Shown in pieces: positions 6,622 through 37,857 of a stretch of 64,000 bases of DNA (the first letter of the stretch is position 1; each line of letters opens with the position of its first letter). A model generated the notes under the pieces. The model was not told the DNA's origin. It was given only the letters and a program-made list of their open reading frames with translations, and did no database searches. The stretch is from a virus. Taxonomy: Duplodnaviria; Caudoviricetes. The stretch spans positions 160,001-224,000 of IMG/VR virus record IMGVR_UViG_3300027804_002812, one strand, 5' to 3'. Both the position numbers and the translations under genes were made by a program.

Positions 6622-6622
6622 G

Positions 6623-6696
6623 TTGGAATAGGTGGACTCGAACCACCAACCTTTCGCGTATCAGACGAATGCTCTAACCAATTGAGCTATATTCCA
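6623..6696 (-). tRNA. tRNA-Ile(GAT)
   Basis: Cloverleaf: TGGAATA/TATTCCA acceptor, loop CT-GAT-AC, TTCGAGT T-loop. Confidence 0.92.
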
Positions 6697-6701
6697 TTAT
6701 G

Positions 6702-6852
6702 CTGTAAGAGATGGATTCGAACCACCACGAGGAGATTCAACAAATAACATATCGCCGGCCGGCTGGTGGTCTACCCCCTCATATTATTTGTCTATTTCTA
6801 ATTCCCCACCCCCGAGACAGGAGGGCTTGTCTGCCAATTTCAACACCTTACA
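6702..6852 (-). ncRNA. Giant tRNA-like RNA (GTC anticodon, about 80-nt variable region)
   Basis: TGTAAGG/TCTTACA acceptor with G73, class II D-arm, CCCTC-CTGTCTC-GGGGG arm, canonical T-arm. Confidence 0.75.
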
Positions 6853-6857
6853 AAAAG

Positions 6858-6942
6858 CAGAGAGTATTGGATTCGAACCAATGCATCCCTTTCGAGATGA
6901 CAGATTAGCAATCTGCTCCTTTAACCACTCAGGCAACTCTCT
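6858..6942 (-). tRNA. tRNA-Ser(GCT)
   Basis: Cloverleaf with long variable arm, loop TT-GCT-AA, G73. Confidence 0.92.
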
Positions 6943-6946
6943 ATTG

Positions 6947-7017
6947 TTATCCTACAAGGATTCGAACCTCGAACGACTGAACCAAAATCAGTAGTGTTAC
7001 CGTTACACCATAGGATA
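6947..7017 (-). tRNA. tRNA-Gln(TTG)
   Basis: TATCCTA/TAGGATA acceptor, loop TT-TTG-GT. Confidence 0.9.
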
Positions 7018-7098
7018 GTTTAGACAGACCTTAGGAGACGTATTATTCTCTTCATTATCCTTGTACTTTAACACCGTGGGAAGCGTGTGTCTGTCTTG

Positions 7099-7180
7099 TG
7101 GGAACGATAGGACTCGAACCTATGAACTCCGAAGAGAGGAGATTTACAGTCTCCGGCAATTGCCGCTATGCGACGTTCCC
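7099..7180 (-). tRNA. tRNA-Tyr(GTA)
   Basis: GGGAACG/CGTTCCC acceptor, loop CT-GTA-AA, long variable arm. Confidence 0.92.
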
Positions 7181-7313
7181 AAAATAAGGAAAGGAGAAGA
7201 TGGTTCCGTGGACATCTCCTTTTACGATTGGCGTTACTACGATGATTCCAAACTCCAAATGTACCACCTCCATCATCAGGTTAACATACATTCCTTCCCC
7301 AATCAACCTTTAG

Positions 7314-7386
7314 CACAGGAGGAGAGAATCGAACTCCCGACAACTGGTTTTGGAGACCAGTGCTCTTCCATCTGAGCTACTCCTGT
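7314..7386 (-). tRNA. tRNA-Trp(CCA)
   Basis: ACAGGAG/CTCCTGT acceptor, loop CT-CCA-AA, G73. Confidence 0.92.
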
Positions 7387-7397
7387 ATTCAACAAAG

Positions 7398-8027
7398 TTA
7401 AATAAATTTGTTCATCAAATTTAACTCTTTTATCAAATCTTTACAATAAAATTTATGACCATTTTCGGACCAATGTCCATCAGATATACGTCCATTTGTT
7501 TCTTCTTTGATGGTTTGATACTTTTGAAATAAACCATTTTGATTCCACCTCCAAATATGTAAAATCATATCTTTCATTACAAATTTTATCATATTCTCCC
7601 AAGCCATACGTTCTTCCTCTATTCCTTTATTCGGATCACGATGTTCTCCCGTAACCCTATTTAGAAGCAAGTTGAGAATAGAATCACTATCAATCCCCCC
7701 CCAATCAATTTGTTCCATCACATTGAATGATCTCCACTCACCATTCTCATCAGTTATTCGAATTCTTGGTTCAGGTGCCCATCCAACAAAAACAATATCA
7801 TTCGGTTTTATTTCTGTAATATTTTCACAAAAAGATTGGAGTATTGAATAGTTATCCCATCCTCCTTGAGCAAAATTTTTGTAATCATATCCCAATTCTT
7901 CAGAAACCAATTTCCCCCATGATTTTGGGAAATATCCTTTCAAATCCTTGTAAAGTTCGAAATTACCAATTCGGTTATTTTCGAAATCCACAGAAAATGA
8001 ATCACCGAATACCCATACTGTTTTCAT
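7398..8027 (-). CDS. SGNH/GDSL-like hydrolase or acyltransferase
   Basis: FGDSF, GGWDN and DGHWSENGH motifs. Confidence 0.65.
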   Translation of the reverse strand: MKTVWVFGDSFSVDFENNRIGNFELYKDLKGYFPKSWGKLVSEELGYDYKNFAQGGWDNYSILQSFCENITEIKPNDIVFVGWAPEPRIRITDENGEWRSFNVMEQIDWGGIDSDSILNLLLNRVTGEHRDPNKGIEEERMAWENMIKFVMKDMILHIWRWNQNGLFQKYQTIKEETNGRISDGHWSENGHKFYCKDLIKELNLMNKFI

Positions 8028-8031
8028 GTGT

Positions 8032-8448
8032 TTATTTTTTCAACAACCAAGACGAAGATTGGATTTTATCGCCAAGTCCATCAATCAACTTAATCCCTAA
8101 CCAATCACATATGTGTCTCTCAGGGATGCTATTGTTAGTTTGGTCTCCACCATTGGCGAATAAGTATTCATCCTCTCTATCCCCCAAAGTATAAATCGTT
8201 TCGAGTGTTTTACAAACAGTTCTATCTGTATCTATGGAGGGGAAAACTCTATCAACCATTTTCAAATTTTGGACGATAAACATTCTCTCATCTTCACTCT
8301 GAAACTCTTTACTACCTTTCAACTCTCTCTGTTTGTCGTTATTGACGATAACATAGAGTTTATCACCATGTTCTTTGGACTTATTGAAATATTCAATATG
8401 TCCCTTATGAACAGGATTAAAATAACCGCTTACAATTACAATTTTCAT
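8032..8448 (-). CDS. Cytidylyltransferase-like nucleotidyltransferase (TagD/RfaE-II type)
   Basis: SGYFNPVHKGH (HxGH), FANGGD, KIQSSS. Confidence 0.85.
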   Translation of the reverse strand: MKIVIVSGYFNPVHKGHIEYFNKSKEHGDKLYVIVNNDKQRELKGSKEFQSEDERMFIVQNLKMVDRVFPSIDTDRTVCKTLETIYTLGDREDEYLFANGGDQTNNSIPERHICDWLGIKLIDGLGDKIQSSSWLLKK

Positions 8449-8464
8449 ATTCTAAAATTAAATG

Positions 8465-8538
8465 AGGTCAGAATCGGATTCGAACCGATGGATACTTGTT
8501 TTGCAGACAAGCCCCTTAAGCCACTTGGGTATCTGACC
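8465..8538 (-). tRNA. tRNA-Cys(GCA)
   Basis: GGTCAGA/TCTGACC acceptor, U73, loop CT-GCA-AA. Confidence 0.92.
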
Positions 8539-8547
8539 ATTTATAAT

Positions 8548-8615
8548 GTGTCAGGACGGGTTTCTAACCCGCTCCTCAGTTAACTACTGTGTGCTGCCAT
8601 TTACACCACCTGACT
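8548..8615 (-). ncRNA. Minimal tRNA-like RNA (AGTCAGG family, no anticodon loop)
   Basis: AGTCAGG/CCTGACA ends, GCGGG-TTAGAAA-CCCGT T-like arm, 4-bp CAGT/ACTG hairpin with 5-nt loop. Confidence 0.6.
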
Positions 8616-8680
8616 AAATTTAGATTTCTAAAACTCATCCTCGAAAGGGTAAAGAAACTCCATCTTATTTGTTTTTTGCG

Positions 8681-8801
8681 TAGTCAGGACAGGATTCGAA
8701 CCTGTACGAAGAGTATGTGTGTCTCTTCTCCTATGGGTTTACCTCAAGGGTTTCCACCTGCCATCGCACGTTGTAGCGTCTACCAATTTCGCCACCTGAC
8801 T
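8681..8801 (-). ncRNA. tRNA-like RNA (AGTCAGG family) with replaced anticodon/variable region
   Basis: AGTCAGGTGGCGAAATTGGTAGACGC...ACAGGTTCGAATCCTGTCCTGACTA. Confidence 0.8.
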
Positions 8802-8885
8802 ATATTAGGTTAGAGGCTGTTAACCATAAGGTCGTACGAAACATCACTTGTACTTCGTGTCAGGGAATTTCCCATACCTCTAAAG

Positions 8886-9028
8886 TAGTCAGGACAGGAT
8901 TCGAACCTGTATGATTGAAAAGACCAATTTTATTCGGTTCTTCGGGATGGTCAACATATTTAATGTGATGTCTCACGGCCCGATTAATCAATCACCCATT
9001 ACACGTCTACCAATTTCGCCACCTGACC
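8886..9028 (-). ncRNA. tRNA-like RNA (AGTCAGG family) with enlarged anticodon and variable arms
   Basis: GGTCAGGTGGCGAAATTGGTAGACGT...ACAGGTTCGAATCCTGTCCTGACTA. Confidence 0.8.
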
Positions 9029-9147
9029 AATGTTTTTAGTTACTTTATCAACACTTCTCCAAGAACCACCTCGGCCAGTTTATATCAATTTCACTTAGGT
9101 TACGTCATGATTCTGCTGGTTAAGCGTCCTCAATCTAAACCCGTTTG

Positions 9148-9221
9148 TACTCCGTACGGGACTCGAACCCGTAAGCTCTCCCGTGAAAGGGGAGTGTCCT
9201 AACCAATTAGACGAACGGAGC
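9148..9221 (-). tRNA. tRNA-Glu(TTC)
   Basis: GCTCCGT/ACGGAGT acceptor, loop CT-TTC-AC. Confidence 0.92.
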
Positions 9222-9233
9222 TTGTTTGTCTTA

Positions 9234-9263
9234 CAAAGATACTACAATATTTCAAAGAACAAA
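9234..9263 (-). promoter_or_regulatory. Bacteroidota-type sigma70 promoter upstream of tRNA-Glu
   Basis: TTTG-N18-TATCTTTG on the minus strand. Confidence 0.55.
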
Positions 9264-9273
9264 AACATGTCAT

Positions 9274-9308
9274 AAAAAAACCCCAAACTTTTTTTAAGAG
9301 TTCGGGGT
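9274..9308 (-). terminator. Attenuator-type intrinsic terminator
   Basis: ACCCCGAACT/AGTTTGGGGT 10-bp stem followed by a U-tract on the minus strand. Confidence 0.85.
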
Positions 9309-9345
9309 CTAAAAATTTAATTTATCTAAATTAAAAAATTACTTT

Positions 9346-9435
9346 CTATGACATCCGAACTACAGGGCAAATACCTTCATACCAACATTTCTCTTGTTGA
9401 CTATTACTGTTAATATGTTGACCTGTAGTTCTCAT
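9346..9435 (-). CDS. Putative 29-aa leader peptide MRTTGQHINSNSQQEKCWYEGICPVVRMS
   Basis: ATG...TAG, 90 nt, between a promoter-like site and the terminator; carries alternative pairing segments. Confidence 0.65.
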   Translation of the reverse strand: MRTTGQHINSNSQQEKCWYEGICPVVRMS

Positions 9436-9452
9436 TGTATTGATAATTACTT

Positions 9453-9483
9453 CTAATGTATGAAATATTTTTATTTTGTCAAA
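9453..9483 (-). promoter_or_regulatory. Promoter of the leader
   Basis: TTTG-N19-TACATTAG, one mismatch to the Bacteroidota TTTG/TAnnTTTG consensus. Confidence 0.55.
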
Positions 9484-9492
9484 TGTTTTTTG

Positions 9493-9566
9493 TATCCCCG
9501 ACACGATTCGAACGTGTGACCCCAAACTTAGAAGGTTTGCGCTCTATCCAGCTGAGCTACGGAGAC
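9493..9566 (-). tRNA. tRNA-Arg(TCT)
   Basis: GTCTCCG/CGGGGAT acceptor, loop CT-TCT-AA. Confidence 0.92.
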
Positions 9567-9571
9567 AAATA

Positions 9572-9733
9572 TTACTGACCGTATATTTTTTTAGCAAGTT
9601 CTTCGGCTTCAGCCAGAAGTTTGTCAGATGCGGTTCTGTTTGTATGAGATAATTTATAAGCATCTGCCATCATTTTCTCATAAGTTTCCTGTAGTTTTTC
9701 TTTTTCTGTTTTCTTCTTAAATAATCCGAACAT
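9572..9733 (-). CDS. Lacal_2735-family-like small protein (53 aa)
   Basis: Manual translation MFGLFKKKTEKEKLQETYEKMMADAYKLSHTNRTASDKLLAEAEELAKKIYGQ. Confidence 0.7.
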   Translation of the reverse strand: MFGLFKKKTEKEKLQETYEKMMADAYKLSHTNRTASDKLLAEAEELAKKIYGQ

Positions 9734-9771
9734 AATATGTGAATAACACTATCGTCTTTGAAAGTTTTTAT

Positions 9772-10023
9772 TTAATCTTTATGCCTTGCGGCGTTCAATC
9801 TACTTTCAAGTTTATCAAGTCGTGAATCTATTGTTCGATAAATATCGTCAATAATTCTATCACGATCTCTCATTTGATTTTCAATTTCTCTTGCGAGAAA
9901 CTGATTTATTTGTTTAATTTCTTCCTTCTGTTTATTCACTCTAACAAAAGCAATAACCGCAACCACTGCCACAGCAATGACCACAACTATAGACATTCCT
10001 AAAATAAATGATACTAAATCCAT
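9772..10023 (-). CDS. Membrane-anchored coiled-coil protein
   Basis: N-terminal TM segment and charged helical tail. Confidence 0.7.
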   Translation of the reverse strand: MDLVSFILGMSIVVVIAVAVVAVIAFVRVNKQKEEIKQINQFLAREIENQMRDRDRIIDDIYRTIDSRLDKLESRLNAARHKD

Positions 10024-10070
10024 ATAATTTTCTCCTTTATTCCAAAGAACGATAGTGTTATACTCTACAT

Positions 10071-10709
10071 TTATGTTACTCTACCTGGTTTCCAACCGTC
10101 GGGAATAATATCTTCTTTTTTTATTTTTCTATTTTCATCACCATTTGTAATCCATTTTGTACCAAATTGTGAGTTAGATTTTCCGATACCCTTTCCTTTT
10201 TGAACTTCTCTCATTTTTCTTTTGGTCTCCTCGGTGTGAAGCCTATTTCTGAATGTTGCGTGATCAAAATTACTTTTTTGGAATCCCAATTTAATTCGAT
10301 TCGAGAACCACTTATTCCATTCGTCATTCATCAGAAGTTTTTGAACTTCTGGTGACCCTTTAATTAGATTCTTTTTTCCTGCTTCTGAAAATTTATATTT
10401 ATGATTATCGTTTACAAATCCACCAGATCCACCAGGTTTCAGATTCATACACATCGGGTCTTTCAATAAATTTTCATTTACTAATTCTTTTTCTCTTAAA
10501 GACAAAGAAAGCCTATTTGGGAAAAATTCTAAAATTTCGAGCTTAAAATTTTCTTTACCATTTTTCCTAATAGACCTTCTTAATCTAATTCCACTCCCTA
10601 AATAACCATCATTCAGATTATCACTTGAGTGCATACCTATATAAAACTTTCCATTTTTAAGGTTTGTGGTTTTATATATGTAATGATACTTTTTTTGTGG
10701 TCTTGCCAT
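10071..10709 (-). CDS. GIY-YIG homing endonuclease with NUMOD3-like motif
   Basis: YIYKTTNLKNGKFYIG, YLGSG, HTEETKRKMR, GKSNSQFGTKWI. Confidence 0.88.
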   Translation of the reverse strand: MARPQKKYHYIYKTTNLKNGKFYIGMHSSDNLNDGYLGSGIRLRRSIRKNGKENFKLEILEFFPNRLSLSLREKELVNENLLKDPMCMNLKPGGSGGFVNDNHKYKFSEAGKKNLIKGSPEVQKLLMNDEWNKWFSNRIKLGFQKSNFDHATFRNRLHTEETKRKMREVQKGKGIGKSNSQFGTKWITNGDENRKIKKEDIIPDGWKPGRVT

Positions 10710-10760
10710 AACTTATACATTATATATATAAATATAGCAAAGTACAAAAAAGTACTCCGG

Positions 10761-10843
10761 TATCAGAGATGGGAGTCGAACCCACACGAGCTTTCGCCCA
10801 GCAGATTTTAAGTCTGCCATGTATACCATTCCATCACTCCGAC
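10761..10843 (-). tRNA. tRNA-Leu(TAA)
   Basis: Class II cloverleaf, loop CT-TAA-AA, A73. Confidence 0.92.
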
Positions 10844-10869
10844 ATTATTCTACAAATATAATGAAAGTT

Positions 10870-11520
10870 TTAGATACTTTCAACCCGATGTTTCATAATT
10901 TCACAATACTTCTCATCGATTTCATAACTAATAGAGTTGAATCCCAACTCTTGAGCAACCTTACTTGTTGTTCCACTTCCACCGAATACATCGATAATTG
11001 TTTGATTTGGTTGTGCGGTTGTCAAAATAATTCTTCGGATTACTTCCTCAGGAATTTGACAAGGGTGCTCGGTCTTTTCCTTGCTAACATTTTTGACTTG
11101 GTTGATTTCCCACCAATCATAAAGTTTTGCACCAGTCTTTCCTTCAGCAATTCTTTTTTGAATACGTTTGTCTTTGAGATTTTTATATTCCTGTCTGACT
11201 TTCCTAAAGTCAGGTTTACAACCCCACCATGATATCAATCGACTTTGTTTTCCTGTGTTGGAATTATACACCCAACAAACAACCTGTTCACATTTGGCGT
11301 TGATTGCCTTTGGTAACAAGTTGATTGTTTCTTCGGGGTAATGAATGATGACACAAGGGGTTGGGATTTTGGATAATAATTCGATATAATCCTCTTCGCT
11401 TAATTTGTCTTTATATTCGTTGTAAGAATATTCTTGATTATAAGGTGGGTCGGTTATTGTTAATCCTGTTGGTATGTCGCAGTTTCTAAAATCTTCGTTA
11501 ATAATTGTTGTTTCCACCAT
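10870..11520 (-). CDS. N4/N6 DNA methyltransferase (beta class)
   Basis: TDPPY, HPCQIP and DVFGGSGTT motifs. Confidence 0.88.
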   Translation of the reverse strand: MVETTIINEDFRNCDIPTGLTITDPPYNQEYSYNEYKDKLSEEDYIELLSKIPTPCVIIHYPEETINLLPKAINAKCEQVVCWVYNSNTGKQSRLISWWGCKPDFRKVRQEYKNLKDKRIQKRIAEGKTGAKLYDWWEINQVKNVSKEKTEHPCQIPEEVIRRIILTTAQPNQTIIDVFGGSGTTSKVAQELGFNSISYEIDEKYCEIMKHRVESI

Positions 11521-11537
11521 AAATTTAATAAATCATT

Positions 11538-12236
11538 CTAAAATTCTTCTTCCCACAGTGTGTTGGATATAGACTCCTCAATGTTGTATGCGTGTGATAA
11601 TATAACATATTTTTTGTCAAAGTAAAATTGGAATTCTCCTTGAGATCCTTCATTTATTTCCCAACCTCCGAAGTTTTCTTCCAATTGTTGATAACACCAT
11701 TCTTCTATTTCGGGTGGTACAGGTTGACCACTCTCAAAATTCGATTCGATGTATCCACTATCACCACCTCCATTATACTTCAAGACCAAATAATTATCTT
11801 CAGGAATTTCGATATCATCGAAAACTCCTTTTTCTTCCCACTCTTCAATCATATCATCGTATTCGACACCTTCTGAACCTCCCTCAGTTTGATAACTATA
11901 CATGTGTGTTAAGGAGATTTCTTTTTTAACACTATCAATCGTTATTTCGAATCCTTGATAAACGATGTTAGCATCATTAGGTAATTCATCGTATAATCCT
12001 TCATCATCAACATAACTGATAATTTTTTTCAATATTGGTACAAGGCCGTCTGGAATTTCTGCGGTATAATTATTCTCAAAATGAGTTGGAAAATAATTTT
12101 CCCCGTATGAAATTTCATCGTCGTCTGGTTCCATTTCAAATGTAATTTCTCCATAGCTTATTCCCAATGAACTGAGATATCTCGAAACTTTACCTAAATA
12201 TTTTTTTTCTTCTGGTGTTAATATATTTTGTGCCAT
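11538..12236 (-). CDS. Acidic protein, DUF6878-like
   Basis: YNGGGDSG and GWEINEGSQGEF motifs. Confidence 0.55.
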   Translation of the reverse strand: MAQNILTPEEKKYLGKVSRYLSSLGISYGEITFEMEPDDDEISYGENYFPTHFENNYTAEIPDGLVPILKKIISYVDDEGLYDELPNDANIVYQGFEITIDSVKKEISLTHMYSYQTEGGSEGVEYDDMIEEWEEKGVFDDIEIPEDNYLVLKYNGGGDSGYIESNFESGQPVPPEIEEWCYQQLEENFGGWEINEGSQGEFQFYFDKKYVILSHAYNIEESISNTLWEEEF

Positions 12237-12247
12237 ACAAATAAATA

Positions 12248-12601
12248 TCAGTCTTCGAATTCTAATTTAATTGTCTTCAACATCCATTGTGGTCTTTGAC
12301 TGGTCGCAACATTATTAACCCATTCTTTTGCGGATGGAATGTAGTTGTTACAATCTTCCTTTACATGTTGTTCACCAACATATCGGGTATAAACTGTCTT
12401 ACCATCCGAGTTTTTGAATTCGGTACCAAACCTTTTTTCCATTTCAAATATTCCTTCACTATGATGTCTAAACATTCTATGTAGGGAATCACCAAACCAT
12501 GACTTGGTTTCGTCTAACCATTCATGCAAATGAATGTAGTCCTCAGGTTTTCCACCAAACTTTTTGGCGGATGATTTTGCATGTAAGTTTGGATGTGCCA
12601 T
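12248..12601 (-). CDS. DUF6915-like His-rich protein
   Basis: MAHP..HAKSS.KKFGG, HEWLD, RHHSEG, EQHVKED. Confidence 0.65.
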   Translation of the reverse strand: MAHPNLHAKSSAKKFGGKPEDYIHLHEWLDETKSWFGDSLHRMFRHHSEGIFEMEKRFGTEFKNSDGKTVYTRYVGEQHVKEDCNNYIPSAKEWVNNVATSQRPQWMLKTIKLEFED

Positions 12602-12722
12602 TATGATTTAATTTGTGAAAAAGATTGTAACGTCTGTACGGTTTGTTTCCAAGGATAATCCTTCAGTTTCCATTTCATTCTTAGCGTCCGTTCCGTCATT
12701 CTTTCGAATCGTTACTATATTG

Positions 12723-12804
12723 CAGAGGAGACAGGATTCGAACCTGCAAAGCTTTTACACCCGACGGTTTTCAAGACCGCTCAACAACCGCTGTCCACTC
12801 CTCT
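12723..12804 (-). tRNA. tRNA-Ser(TGA), atypical D-arm
   Basis: AGAGGAG/CTCCTCT acceptor, G73, loop CT-TGA-AA, long variable arm. Confidence 0.85.
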
Positions 12805-12983
12805 AATTAAACCTAACATAATCAAATCGTCATTTGAATAGAGGTTAGGGGTGTGATTTTAGCTTATACCTTGGGCTATTCACTTATATCACAATACAAC
12901 CTCTGTGTTGTTCTTACGGTTAACATCGAGGTACACGGCTTACCCTGGGACGCTGTTCTTATGGATAGCGTGGTAATTACCGT

Positions 12984-13058
12984 TGGAGCTCCCACTCGGA
13001 ATCGAACCAAGTTATCATGATTACAAGTCATGTGCATCGCCAGCAATGCTTTAGGAGC
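12984..13058 (-). tRNA. tRNA-Thr(TGT), CCA encoded
   Basis: GCTCCTA/TGGGAGC acceptor, loop CT-TGT-AA. Confidence 0.9.
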
Positions 13059-13075
13059 GTATAATTAAATATCTG

Positions 13076-13149
13076 TGGGCCTGGTAGGAATCGAACCTAC
13101 TACCTTCACATTATGAGTGTGCCGCTCTAACCGAGTGAGCTACAGGCCC
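13076..13149 (-). tRNA. tRNA-CAT (Ile2-like; elongator Met possible)
   Basis: GGGCCTG/CAGGCCC acceptor, loop CT-CAT-AA; lacks initiator features. Confidence 0.85.
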
Positions 13150-37764: not shown

Positions 37765-37857
37765 TGGTGGTTGGGAGTGGGATCGAACCACTGGCTCATC
37801 GGGTTTCAACCGATTGCTCTACCATAAACTCTAAGGAGTTCCTGAGCTACCACAACC
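37765..37857 (-). tRNA. tRNA-Phe(GAA) with D-loop hairpin insertion, CCA encoded
   Basis: Loop TT-GAA-AC, canonical T-arm, ACCA end; GAACTC-CTTA-GAGTTT inside the D-loop. Confidence 0.8.

Follow-up and report, generated by a model that had tools for sequence, protein, structure and literature searches.

The nearest published class to the RNA described here is that of the allo-tRNAs of bacteria and phages, which combine a long variable arm and G73 with an anticodon that does not match the tRNA body, and for which GUC is among the commonest anticodons (PMC5389517, PMC7609411). Some allo-tRNAs are thought to be non-decoding or regulatory. A further point of reference is the bacterial Asp identity set, which consists of G73, G10, G34, U35, C36 and C38 (PMC9976931). 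We analysed a 64,000-nt stretch of phage DNA (hereafter the window; positions 160,001 to 224,000 of the IMG/VR record IMGVR_UViG_3300027804_002812), in which a cluster of tRNA genes contains a tRNA-like RNA gene of 151 nt. This gene is a real, structurally constrained and conserved RNA gene, the phage's version of a class II tRNA-like RNA of Bacteroidota that bears Asp-type marks and is absent from the catalogues. The family occurs in Cytophagales, in bacteria of the Saprospiraceae type and in many uncultured phages of these groups.

Searching for exact matches to the 17 nt that form the anticodon-type arm gave at least 118 viral loci, of which no more than one or two departed from a shared architecture of approximately 150 nt. 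In prokaryote genomes there were at least 120 loci, likewise nearly all of this architecture, and almost all of them lay in Bacteroidota chromosomes or metagenome-assembled genomes. The carriers included the genera Dyadobacter, Spirosoma, Arcicella, Flectobacillus, Algoriphagus, Cyclobacterium, Belliella, Echinicola, Indibacter, Marinoscillum and Persicobacter, as well as Saprospiraceae, Lewinellaceae and some Chitinophagales, with Cytophagales among the carrier groups. A second search was made with the D arm alone, so that the anticodon-type hairpin was not selected for, and returned ordinary phage tRNA-Leu genes together with family members, confirming that the D arm is of the Leu type. The hairpin stems of the relatives selected in this way were CCCAC/GUGGG, CCCUC/GAGGG, CCUCC/GGAGG, UCCUC/GGGGA and CCUUC/GAAGG, and the loop was constantly YUGUCUC with one outlier. 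From the matches listed, 217 distinct members of 90-291 nt were collected, of which 81 came from uncultured phages and the other 136 from chromosomes of Bacteroidota. UGU stands at the start of 207 of them, G73 is found in 215 and U8 G9 in 213; the base after the discriminator is C in all members, and a C likewise follows the discriminator where canonical tRNA genes were inspected in a Dyadobacter carrier.

An alignment of 120 diverse members (42 viral and 78 bacterial) was built without a structure reference. When the pairs of the cloverleaf and of the two basal helices of the variable arm were counted, 98.7% of the cells were paired and compensatory change was detected in 22 of the 27 pairs, values that were reached by none of 500 shuffles; sliding the partners by 1-3 columns, as a control, lowered the pairing to approximately 50%. 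Unaided, RNAalifold gave the same helices with 33 pairs, 27 of them with compensatory change, and recovered part of the long stem of the variable arm. In 60 phage relatives, 7 of the 9 counted pairs of this long stem were compensatory, and the apical GC hairpin covaried too. The covariation and the size of the family ruled out a chance resemblance or a pseudogene. The marks U1-A72, G2-C71, U3-A70, G73, U8 G9 and the loop YUGUCUC are fixed in 97-100% of the family, and all of them are present in the window copy. A covariance model, R1, was built from this alignment.

The coordinates below are positions in the window, and the gene is read on the minus strand. On this strand, the 7-bp acceptor stem, G73, CUGUCUC loop, T arm and 82-nt variable region of the original prediction were all confirmed, and the D arm, described there as of Leu or Ser type, proved to be of the Leu type.

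6702-6852, minus strand: the whole tRNA-like RNA gene, 151 nt, scored by R1 (whose training alignment contained this sequence) at 132.2 bits, E = 6.5e-36, with the entire model aligned (model positions 1-139)
6846-6852, minus strand: 5' strand of the acceptor stem, UGUAAGG, pairing with 6703-6709
6827-6843, minus strand: D arm of the tRNA-Leu type, supported by covariation, with the 3-bp stem UUG/CAA, the loop AAAUUGGCAGA and G18 G19
6809-6825, minus strand: anticodon-type arm CCCUC-CUGUCUC-GGGGG, with a covarying stem and a constant loop
6814-6820, minus strand: anticodon-type loop, with GUC at 34-36, U37 and C38
6727-6808, minus strand: variable-arm domain of 82 nt (RNA positions 45-126), with covarying helices
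6804-6807, minus strand: 5' strand of the arm base helix, GGGG, pairing with CCUC at 6729-6732; 4/4 pairs compensatory, 100% of cells paired
6797-6799, minus strand: AGA of the 3-bp arm helix, pairing with UCU at 6733-6735 beyond a 4-nt bulge; 3/3 pairs covary
6781-6791, minus strand: 5' strand of the long arm stem ACAAAUAAUAU/AUGUUAUUUGU, pairing with 6740-6750
6765-6777, minus strand: apical hairpin GGGGUAGACCACC with the motif GG-N-N-GACCA, supported by conservation of the motif
6754-6763, minus strand: apical GC hairpin GCCGGCCGGC, with GCUUGCAAGC or GCAUGCAUGC at the same site in relatives
6710-6726, minus strand: T arm GGUGG-UUCGAAU-CCAUC; 4/5 pairs covary, 99.3% of cells paired
6702-6709, minus strand: 3' strand of the acceptor stem, UCUUACA, and the discriminator G73 (6702), the latter in 215/217 relatives

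The acceptor stem UGUAAGG/UCUUACA thus has 7 bp and is followed by G73, and U8 G9 is present. Among the 120 relatives, U1-A72 was found in 119, G2-C71 in 120 and U3-A70 in 117, and pairs 4-7 covaried; in the D arm, pairs 10-25 and 11-24 covaried and G12-C23 was fixed. The pairing at the variable arm's base, for which GGGGA/UCUCC had been proposed, had to be revised, as covariation in the 120 relatives gave GGGG/CCUC, a 4-nt bulge and AGA/UCU. In the window copy this base module consists of GGGG/CCUC, an AAUU bulge, AGA/UCU and an A-rich internal loop AAUAG opposite UGAA, and the 3-bp helix takes the forms AGA/UCU, ACU/AGU, CGG/CCG and CAA/UUG among relatives. The predicted long stem and the two hairpins above it were found to be real, the long stem covarying in the phage subfamily, and the replacement of GCCGGCCGGC by GCUUGCAAGC or GCAUGCAUGC in relatives indicated that the stem pairs of the GC hairpin covary. 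The stems of the insert are conserved in homologs, with compensatory changes. Whether the apical GACCAC motif might pair with the T stem was considered by eye, and the idea was discarded, as no covariation with T-stem changes was seen.

Across relatives, the variable region ranges from 21 to 186 nt with a median of about 79 nt. The motif GG-N-N-GACCA was found in 137 of the 217 members (72/81 viral and 65/136 host), mostly 33-37 nt into the arm, and later where an extra hairpin precedes it. The shortest members, of 90-96 nt with plain arms of 18-23 nt, are class II and the apical motif is missing from them. Near-identical relatives of the window copy were found at two loci (L020 and L028). An additional hairpin in the D loop, for example GAAA-UGCGUACGC-CGGCAGAC, or a D region of much greater size was also observed in some members (L001, L038, L072, L076, L085 and L108, and also L015, L030, L053 and L083). 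These additions to the D region indicate that the family tolerates expansion at two sites and not in the variable arm alone.

The single-sequence fold recovered the acceptor, the anticodon-type hairpin, the long stem and the T arm, with an energy no better than that of shuffles (z = -0.49). As the fold energy is unremarkable, the case for structure rests on comparison and not on thermodynamics. ARAGORN made no call on the 151-nt gene with intron mode on or off, and a scan against Rfam 15 was negative both at the gathering score and with E allowed to rise to 10, the one exception being a spurious match to the Y RNA-like YrlA (RF02553; 19 bits against a gathering score of 69, E = 0.16). The YrlA match was judged to be an artefact because it runs from the T arm of the 151-nt gene into the D arm of the tRNA that follows. 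Rfam 15 likewise had no match for at least 15 other family copies in 8 loci, missing every copy scanned, and blastn of the 151 nt against cultured phage genomes gave no match at E up to 1e-3. No description of the family was found in Rfam 15 or by a full-text literature search.

The prevalence in hosts was estimated by scanning 151 genomes drawn evenly across Bacteroidota with R1. Clear family members of 109-212 nt, scoring 79-138 bits, were detected in 14 of the 151 genomes, plus two borderline; in the remaining genomes, R1 only cross-matched 82-87-nt class II tRNAs at approximately 50-60 bits. At 71 of about 118 host loci listed, a divergent gene for a 155-aa regulator of the Lrp/AsnC family lies approximately 200 nt upstream and is followed by sufB and sufC, and a gene for an AMP-binding ligase is often found downstream. 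Several host genomes have tandem arrays of two to five copies, e.g. five in Persicobacter. A partnership with the PF09924 aminoacyl-lipid synthase was considered and rejected. This domain occurs in 24 of the 151 genomes and in only 2 of the 14 carriers, showing no association with the RNA.

Conserved segments were also observed downstream of the gene. In Cyclobacteriaceae-type hosts, a conserved trailer of approximately 35 nt (GGTTATTTTGGGTTTATTGTTAATTGAC...) and a terminator hairpin lie directly 3' of the gene (examples are L196, L200, L206, L217, L226, L237, L239 and L242), other hosts carry a related trailer, TTTTGGGTTAATGTTGTTTA, and Rfam gave no match for the trailer. The conserved 3' trailer may be a second conserved RNA element. 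About 29 bacterial loci, L202 and L207 among them, have in common a second recurrent sequence, TTTTTAGTTTGTTGATGAAGTGTAA, on the downstream side of the gene. In one phage lineage (L017, L034, L036, L106, L132 and L144, for example), a conserved TTAGGTTRACTGGAATG... is located 3' of the gene, with a potential long-range pairing GACTGG ... CCAGTC and no Rfam match.

The neighbourhoods of the phage copies track phage lineage only, with terminase-like, PhoH-like and portal-like open reading frames (ORFs). The 145 family-bearing phage loci (mean 9.3 kb) included 53 without any other tRNA and 34 with one other. The phage genome to which the window belongs is a single contig of 326 kb rated complete by CheckV, and an R1 scan of this genome detected a single copy only. 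The 151-nt gene is situated within a run of twelve minus-strand tRNA genes (6622-13149), where ARAGORN and Rfam placed tRNA-Ser(GCU) at 6857-6942, 4 nt before the gene start, and tRNA-Ile(GAU) at 6622-6696, 5 nt after the gene end; no terminator-like site was found between the gene and these flanking tRNAs. The phage genome contains no gene for RtcB, a class IIb synthetase or a CCA-adding enzyme, which leaves it reliant on host enzymes. The proposed RtcB or RNA-repair context was not borne out, as this phage is without RtcB and no repair operon lies nearby. The ORFs nearby, encoding a cytidylyltransferase-like protein, an M23 peptidase and a GIY-YIG endonuclease, were not informative. The cytidylyltransferase-like gene (PF01467; 8032-8448, minus strand) lies among the tRNA genes, and an ORF with GIY-YIG and NUMOD3 motifs, of the Seg-type homing endonucleases (10071-10709, minus strand), lies inside the cluster in a placement that mirrors segB of the T4 tRNA cluster. 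Far from the main cluster, 37765-37857 (minus strand) gave a partial Rfam tRNA match (32 bits, model positions 9-63), for which the intron mode of ARAGORN reported an odd tRNA-Ile(UAU) with a 3-nt 'intron'.

Regarding expression, contigs from four freshwater metatranscriptome runs matched 6803-6852, the 5' 50 nt with the conserved acceptor, D arm and hairpin, exactly or nearly and then diverged. This suggests that family members are present in RNA libraries, with carry-over of DNA being possible.

The relation of the family to tRNA-Asp was examined in carriers. In 5/5 hosts tested, a canonical tRNA-Asp was present that is of class I and has G1-C72 and a CUGUCAC loop, which ruled out the RNA as the sole tRNA-Asp of the host. 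Among the phage loci with at least 8 tRNAs, 17 of 31 had a canonical tRNA-Asp, including every locus with at least 16 tRNAs; as tRNA-rich phage loci carry both, the RNA as a phage replacement for tRNA-Asp was also ruled out. The coexistence in hosts and tRNA-rich phages indicates that the family is kept in addition to tRNA-Asp. The family loop is identical to that of host tRNA-Asp except for the change of A37 to U, and U37 is found in the window copy and in every family member but one outlier. To our knowledge, a pyrimidine at position 37 is almost without example in decoding tRNAs.

We tentatively favour the reading that the RNA is processed as a tRNA and probably recognised by aspartyl-tRNA synthetase (AspRS), and that it is a non-canonical class II tRNA with a GUC loop that does not act as a routine Asp decoder. 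The gene would be transcribed together with the adjoining tRNAs, cut by RNase P, trimmed at the 3' end and supplied with CCA by host enzymes; signs of tRNA-like handling are the spacers of 4-5 nt, the C after the discriminator and the tandem arrays in hosts. The product is predicted to adopt the tRNA L-shape, with a projecting 82-nt arm composed of two short helices, the long stem and a two-hairpin junction. Fixation at both ends of the L (the GUC, C38 loop on one side and G73, G2-C71 and U1-A72 on the other) fits a synthetase that reads both ends, and the fixed loop together with G73 is best explained by the Asp identity set, pointing to recognition by AspRS. AspRS would accordingly be the likeliest synthetase, and the RNA is probably aspartylated. 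The view of an Asp tRNA carrying an extra domain, offered in the original prediction, agrees with this anatomy, in which GUC, C38, G73 and G2-C71 are fixed across the 217 relatives. The retention of a normal tRNA-Asp alongside and the presence of U37 suggest that bulk decoding of Asp codons is probably not its task. A specialised role appears more likely, in which the conserved arm may serve as a handle for a partner, and the phage copy would raise or secure the supply of the host RNA during infection.

Several observations weigh against this reading. No conserved protein partner was found beside the gene at host or phage loci, and the RNA-library contigs, diverging past 6803-6852, derive from relatives and not from this copy. 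Although five of the six Asp identity positions are present, G10 is replaced by U10 here and by A10 in most relatives. The hinge of tRNA-Leu (A15, U48, G18 G19 and A20a in our numbering) is retained, and G73 with a long arm is the signature of seryl-tRNA synthetase (SerRS) too. The 7-nt loop, U33, the 5-bp stem and all L-shape elements are compatible with decoding, and ARAGORN labels the short family members as tRNA-Asp. The arm itself may be no handle but an expansion that is tolerated.

These decoder-compatible features and the ARAGORN label would be expected if the RNA were a spare Asp decoder, charged by AspRS and reading GAY, whose body and U37 evade an anticodon nuclease or toxin that hits tRNA-Asp; phages would then carry the RNA to sustain translation when the host depletes tRNA-Asp. 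The loop departs from that of tRNA-Asp at position 37 alone, and the RNA is the only tRNA-like gene of the locus in many phages. Colicin E5 cuts tRNAs with GUN anticodons, tRNA-Asp included. The evasion of anticodon nucleases by phage tRNAs through loop changes is a published idea, with colicin E5 among the nucleases named (PMC10264068). The loops of phage and host members are, however, identical, and the phage gene is thus no escape variant of the host gene; the latter occupies a conserved position of the housekeeping kind, beside which neither a nuclease nor a toxin gene lies, and the rarity of a pyrimidine 37 in decoders also stands against this explanation, which we consider unlikely.

Constancy of the whole 7-nt loop, positions 32, 37 and 38 included, would also fit an uncharged look-alike, that is, a regulator, sensor or decoy for a factor that binds tRNA-Asp (AspRS, the queuosine-inserting tRNA-guanine transglycosylase or a nuclease), with the arm adding binding or masking the loop. 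Regulatory pseudo-tRNAs exist, such as tRNA-Other of B. cereus. U37 beside a coexisting normal tRNA-Asp, and an apical motif that contains GAC and whose distance from the arm base is nearly constant, are in line with such a role. The fixed U1-A72, G2-C71, U3-A70, G73 and C74 are, in contrast, hard to explain with an unused 3' end, no partner gene was found among the neighbours, and the members with plain 18-23 nt arms are without the apical motif. We regard the look-alike as decidedly unlikely.

A third explanation is that the RNA behaves as an allo-tRNA, being charged by SerRS through the long arm and G73 and inserting Ser at Asp codons as a regulated mistranslation. Compared with the bacterial Ser identity set (PMC9976931), G73, the long arm, G2-C71, R4-Y69 and Y11-R24 speak for it, and the frequent use of GUC by allo-tRNAs fits as well. 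Leucyl-tRNA synthetase requires A73, and replacing this base by G73 can turn a Leu identity into a Ser identity (PMC9976931). SerRS ignores the anticodon, however, and the constant loop with GUC, U37 and C38 would be left unexplained. The acceptor has U1-A72 in place of G1-C72 of the Ser set, and the D loop matches tRNA-Leu of a carrier and not its tRNA-Ser. The same applies to the unpaired flanks of the arm, which in our parsing number 1 (5') and 2 (3') as in the carrier tRNA-Leu, its tRNA-Ser having 1 + 1. We rate the allo-tRNA explanation as improbable.

A more elaborate scheme, to which we give only a slender chance, is an AspRS-charged carrier or sensor that never takes part in routine decoding, the arm of which folds back along the anticodon arm. 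Its conserved loop AGAC (NGAC in relatives) would pair with the RNA's own GUC(U) loop in the manner of an internal codon and mask or gate the anticodon until opened by a partner. If true, this would be a self-capped tRNA-like switch common to Bacteroidota and their phages, without known precedent.

We place still less weight on an off-ribosome platform for asparagine synthesis, in which AspRS would load Asp, GatCAB, reading U1-A72, would convert it to Asn, and an AsnC-type regulator would exert control. In E. coli, asnC controls asnA. U1-A72 is fixed in the family as in tRNA-Asn and tRNA-Gln of a Dyadobacter carrier, and the divergent Lrp/AsnC-family gene stands upstream at 71 host loci. Amidotransferases rely on U1-A72 (PMC9976931). 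GatB was detected in 5/5 carriers, though asparaginyl- and glutaminyl-tRNA synthetases were also present (5/5 and 4/5, respectively), and GatB in 5/5 non-carriers made its presence uninformative. A full-length asnB was found in 3/5 carriers, one of them with three copies; with both synthetases and mostly asnB in the carriers, the scheme is weak. The regulator, moreover, is a family-level match only and heads suf genes, and there is no clear motive for carriage by a phage.

Equally improbable is that the 82-nt insert is a removed intron, a small mobile element or a mere passenger of a functional short class II tRNA, as might be read from the members of 90-96 nt with plain arms of 18-23 nt and from the extra hairpins that come and go in the D loop and the arm, because Rfam gave no intron or ribozyme match at E up to 10, the site is the variable region and not a known bacterial intron site, the helices of the insert covary and the apical motif is kept between hosts and phages, arm length varies continuously among relatives, and, as weak evidence, none of the RNA-library contigs from the four freshwater runs joined across the insert.

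Roughly one in ten of the Bacteroidota genomes sampled has the family, as do well over a hundred contigs of uncultured phages, and standard detectors miss its longer members; annotation pipelines should gain a model for it. Three textbook rules are broken by it, in that the anticodon is that of Asp while the body is class II, position 37 is always a pyrimidine and the variable arm can be as long as 186 nt. If the RNA is charged but non-decoding, it would represent a further tRNA-like carrier serving off-ribosome chemistry, and if it decodes, ribosomes would accept very large tRNA appendages. Its carriage by phages, some without any other tRNA within about 9 kb, suggests that it matters during infection, and may mark an unrecognised host-phage conflict.

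Among described systems, species 1 (rnaC) and species 2 (rnaD) of phage T4 are unexplained stable RNAs of 119-139 nt in a phage tRNA cluster, for which we know of no cellular counterpart. rnaC ends with a tRNA-like T arm and an acceptor-like 3' end. The T4 RNAs have no anticodon-type arm with GUC, and the resemblance is in setting only. Homology was rejected, as R1 with filters off reached only 12.2 bits at the T-arm end of rnaC and had no match in rnaD, compared with up to 41.6 bits on real T4 tRNAs.

Within the phage cluster itself, three AGTCAGG units are located at 8465-8615, 8681-8801 and 8886-9028 on the minus strand, each with an acceptor, D and T scaffold of the tRNA-Leu type and a large insert. 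In these units an unrelated insert replaces the anticodon arm, whereas the 151-nt RNA keeps this arm and enlarges the variable arm. The original prediction had set the RNA apart from the AGTCAGG family. This separation was upheld by R1, which scored the AGTCAGG units at 23-48 bits versus 132 bits for the 151-nt RNA, although a tRNA-Leu-type upper body turned out to be common to both. The intron mode of ARAGORN fused two of the units into a 'tRNA-Leu with a 252-nt intron', which was dismissed as an artefact.

With class II tRNA-Leu (RF00005), the family shares U8 G9, the 3-bp D stem, AAAUUGG-AGA, U48 and the 1 + 2 flanks of the arm, and R1 cross-matches tRNA-Leu at 32-60 bits. It differs by G73 in place of A73 and by the GUC loop, and RF00005 remains below threshold on it. 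With class I tRNA-Asp(GUC), it shares the loop apart from position 37, G73, G2-C71 and U3-A70, the last as seen in Dyadobacter. Compared with tRNA-Asp, the family has a class II body, a Leu-type D arm, U1-A72 for G1-C72, U37 for A37 and no G10, and its arm is 21-186 nt long versus 4-5 nt.

Comparison with the allo-tRNAs, of which the long arm, G73 and the mismatch of anticodon and body are shared, shows differences in hosts and in architecture. Allo-tRNAs are found in Clostridia, Proteobacteria and Acidobacteria and not in Bacteroidota, and arms of 80-190 nt are not described in the allo-tRNA papers searched. Their defining trait is a 12-bp acceptor branch split 8/4 or 9/3 between acceptor and T stem, whereas the architecture of the family is 7/5, as covariation supports stems of 7 acceptor and 5 T-stem pairs and there is no spare nucleotide for an eighth acceptor pair. 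Finally, the anticodons of allo-tRNAs are diverse, whereas the family described here keeps its whole loop fixed.

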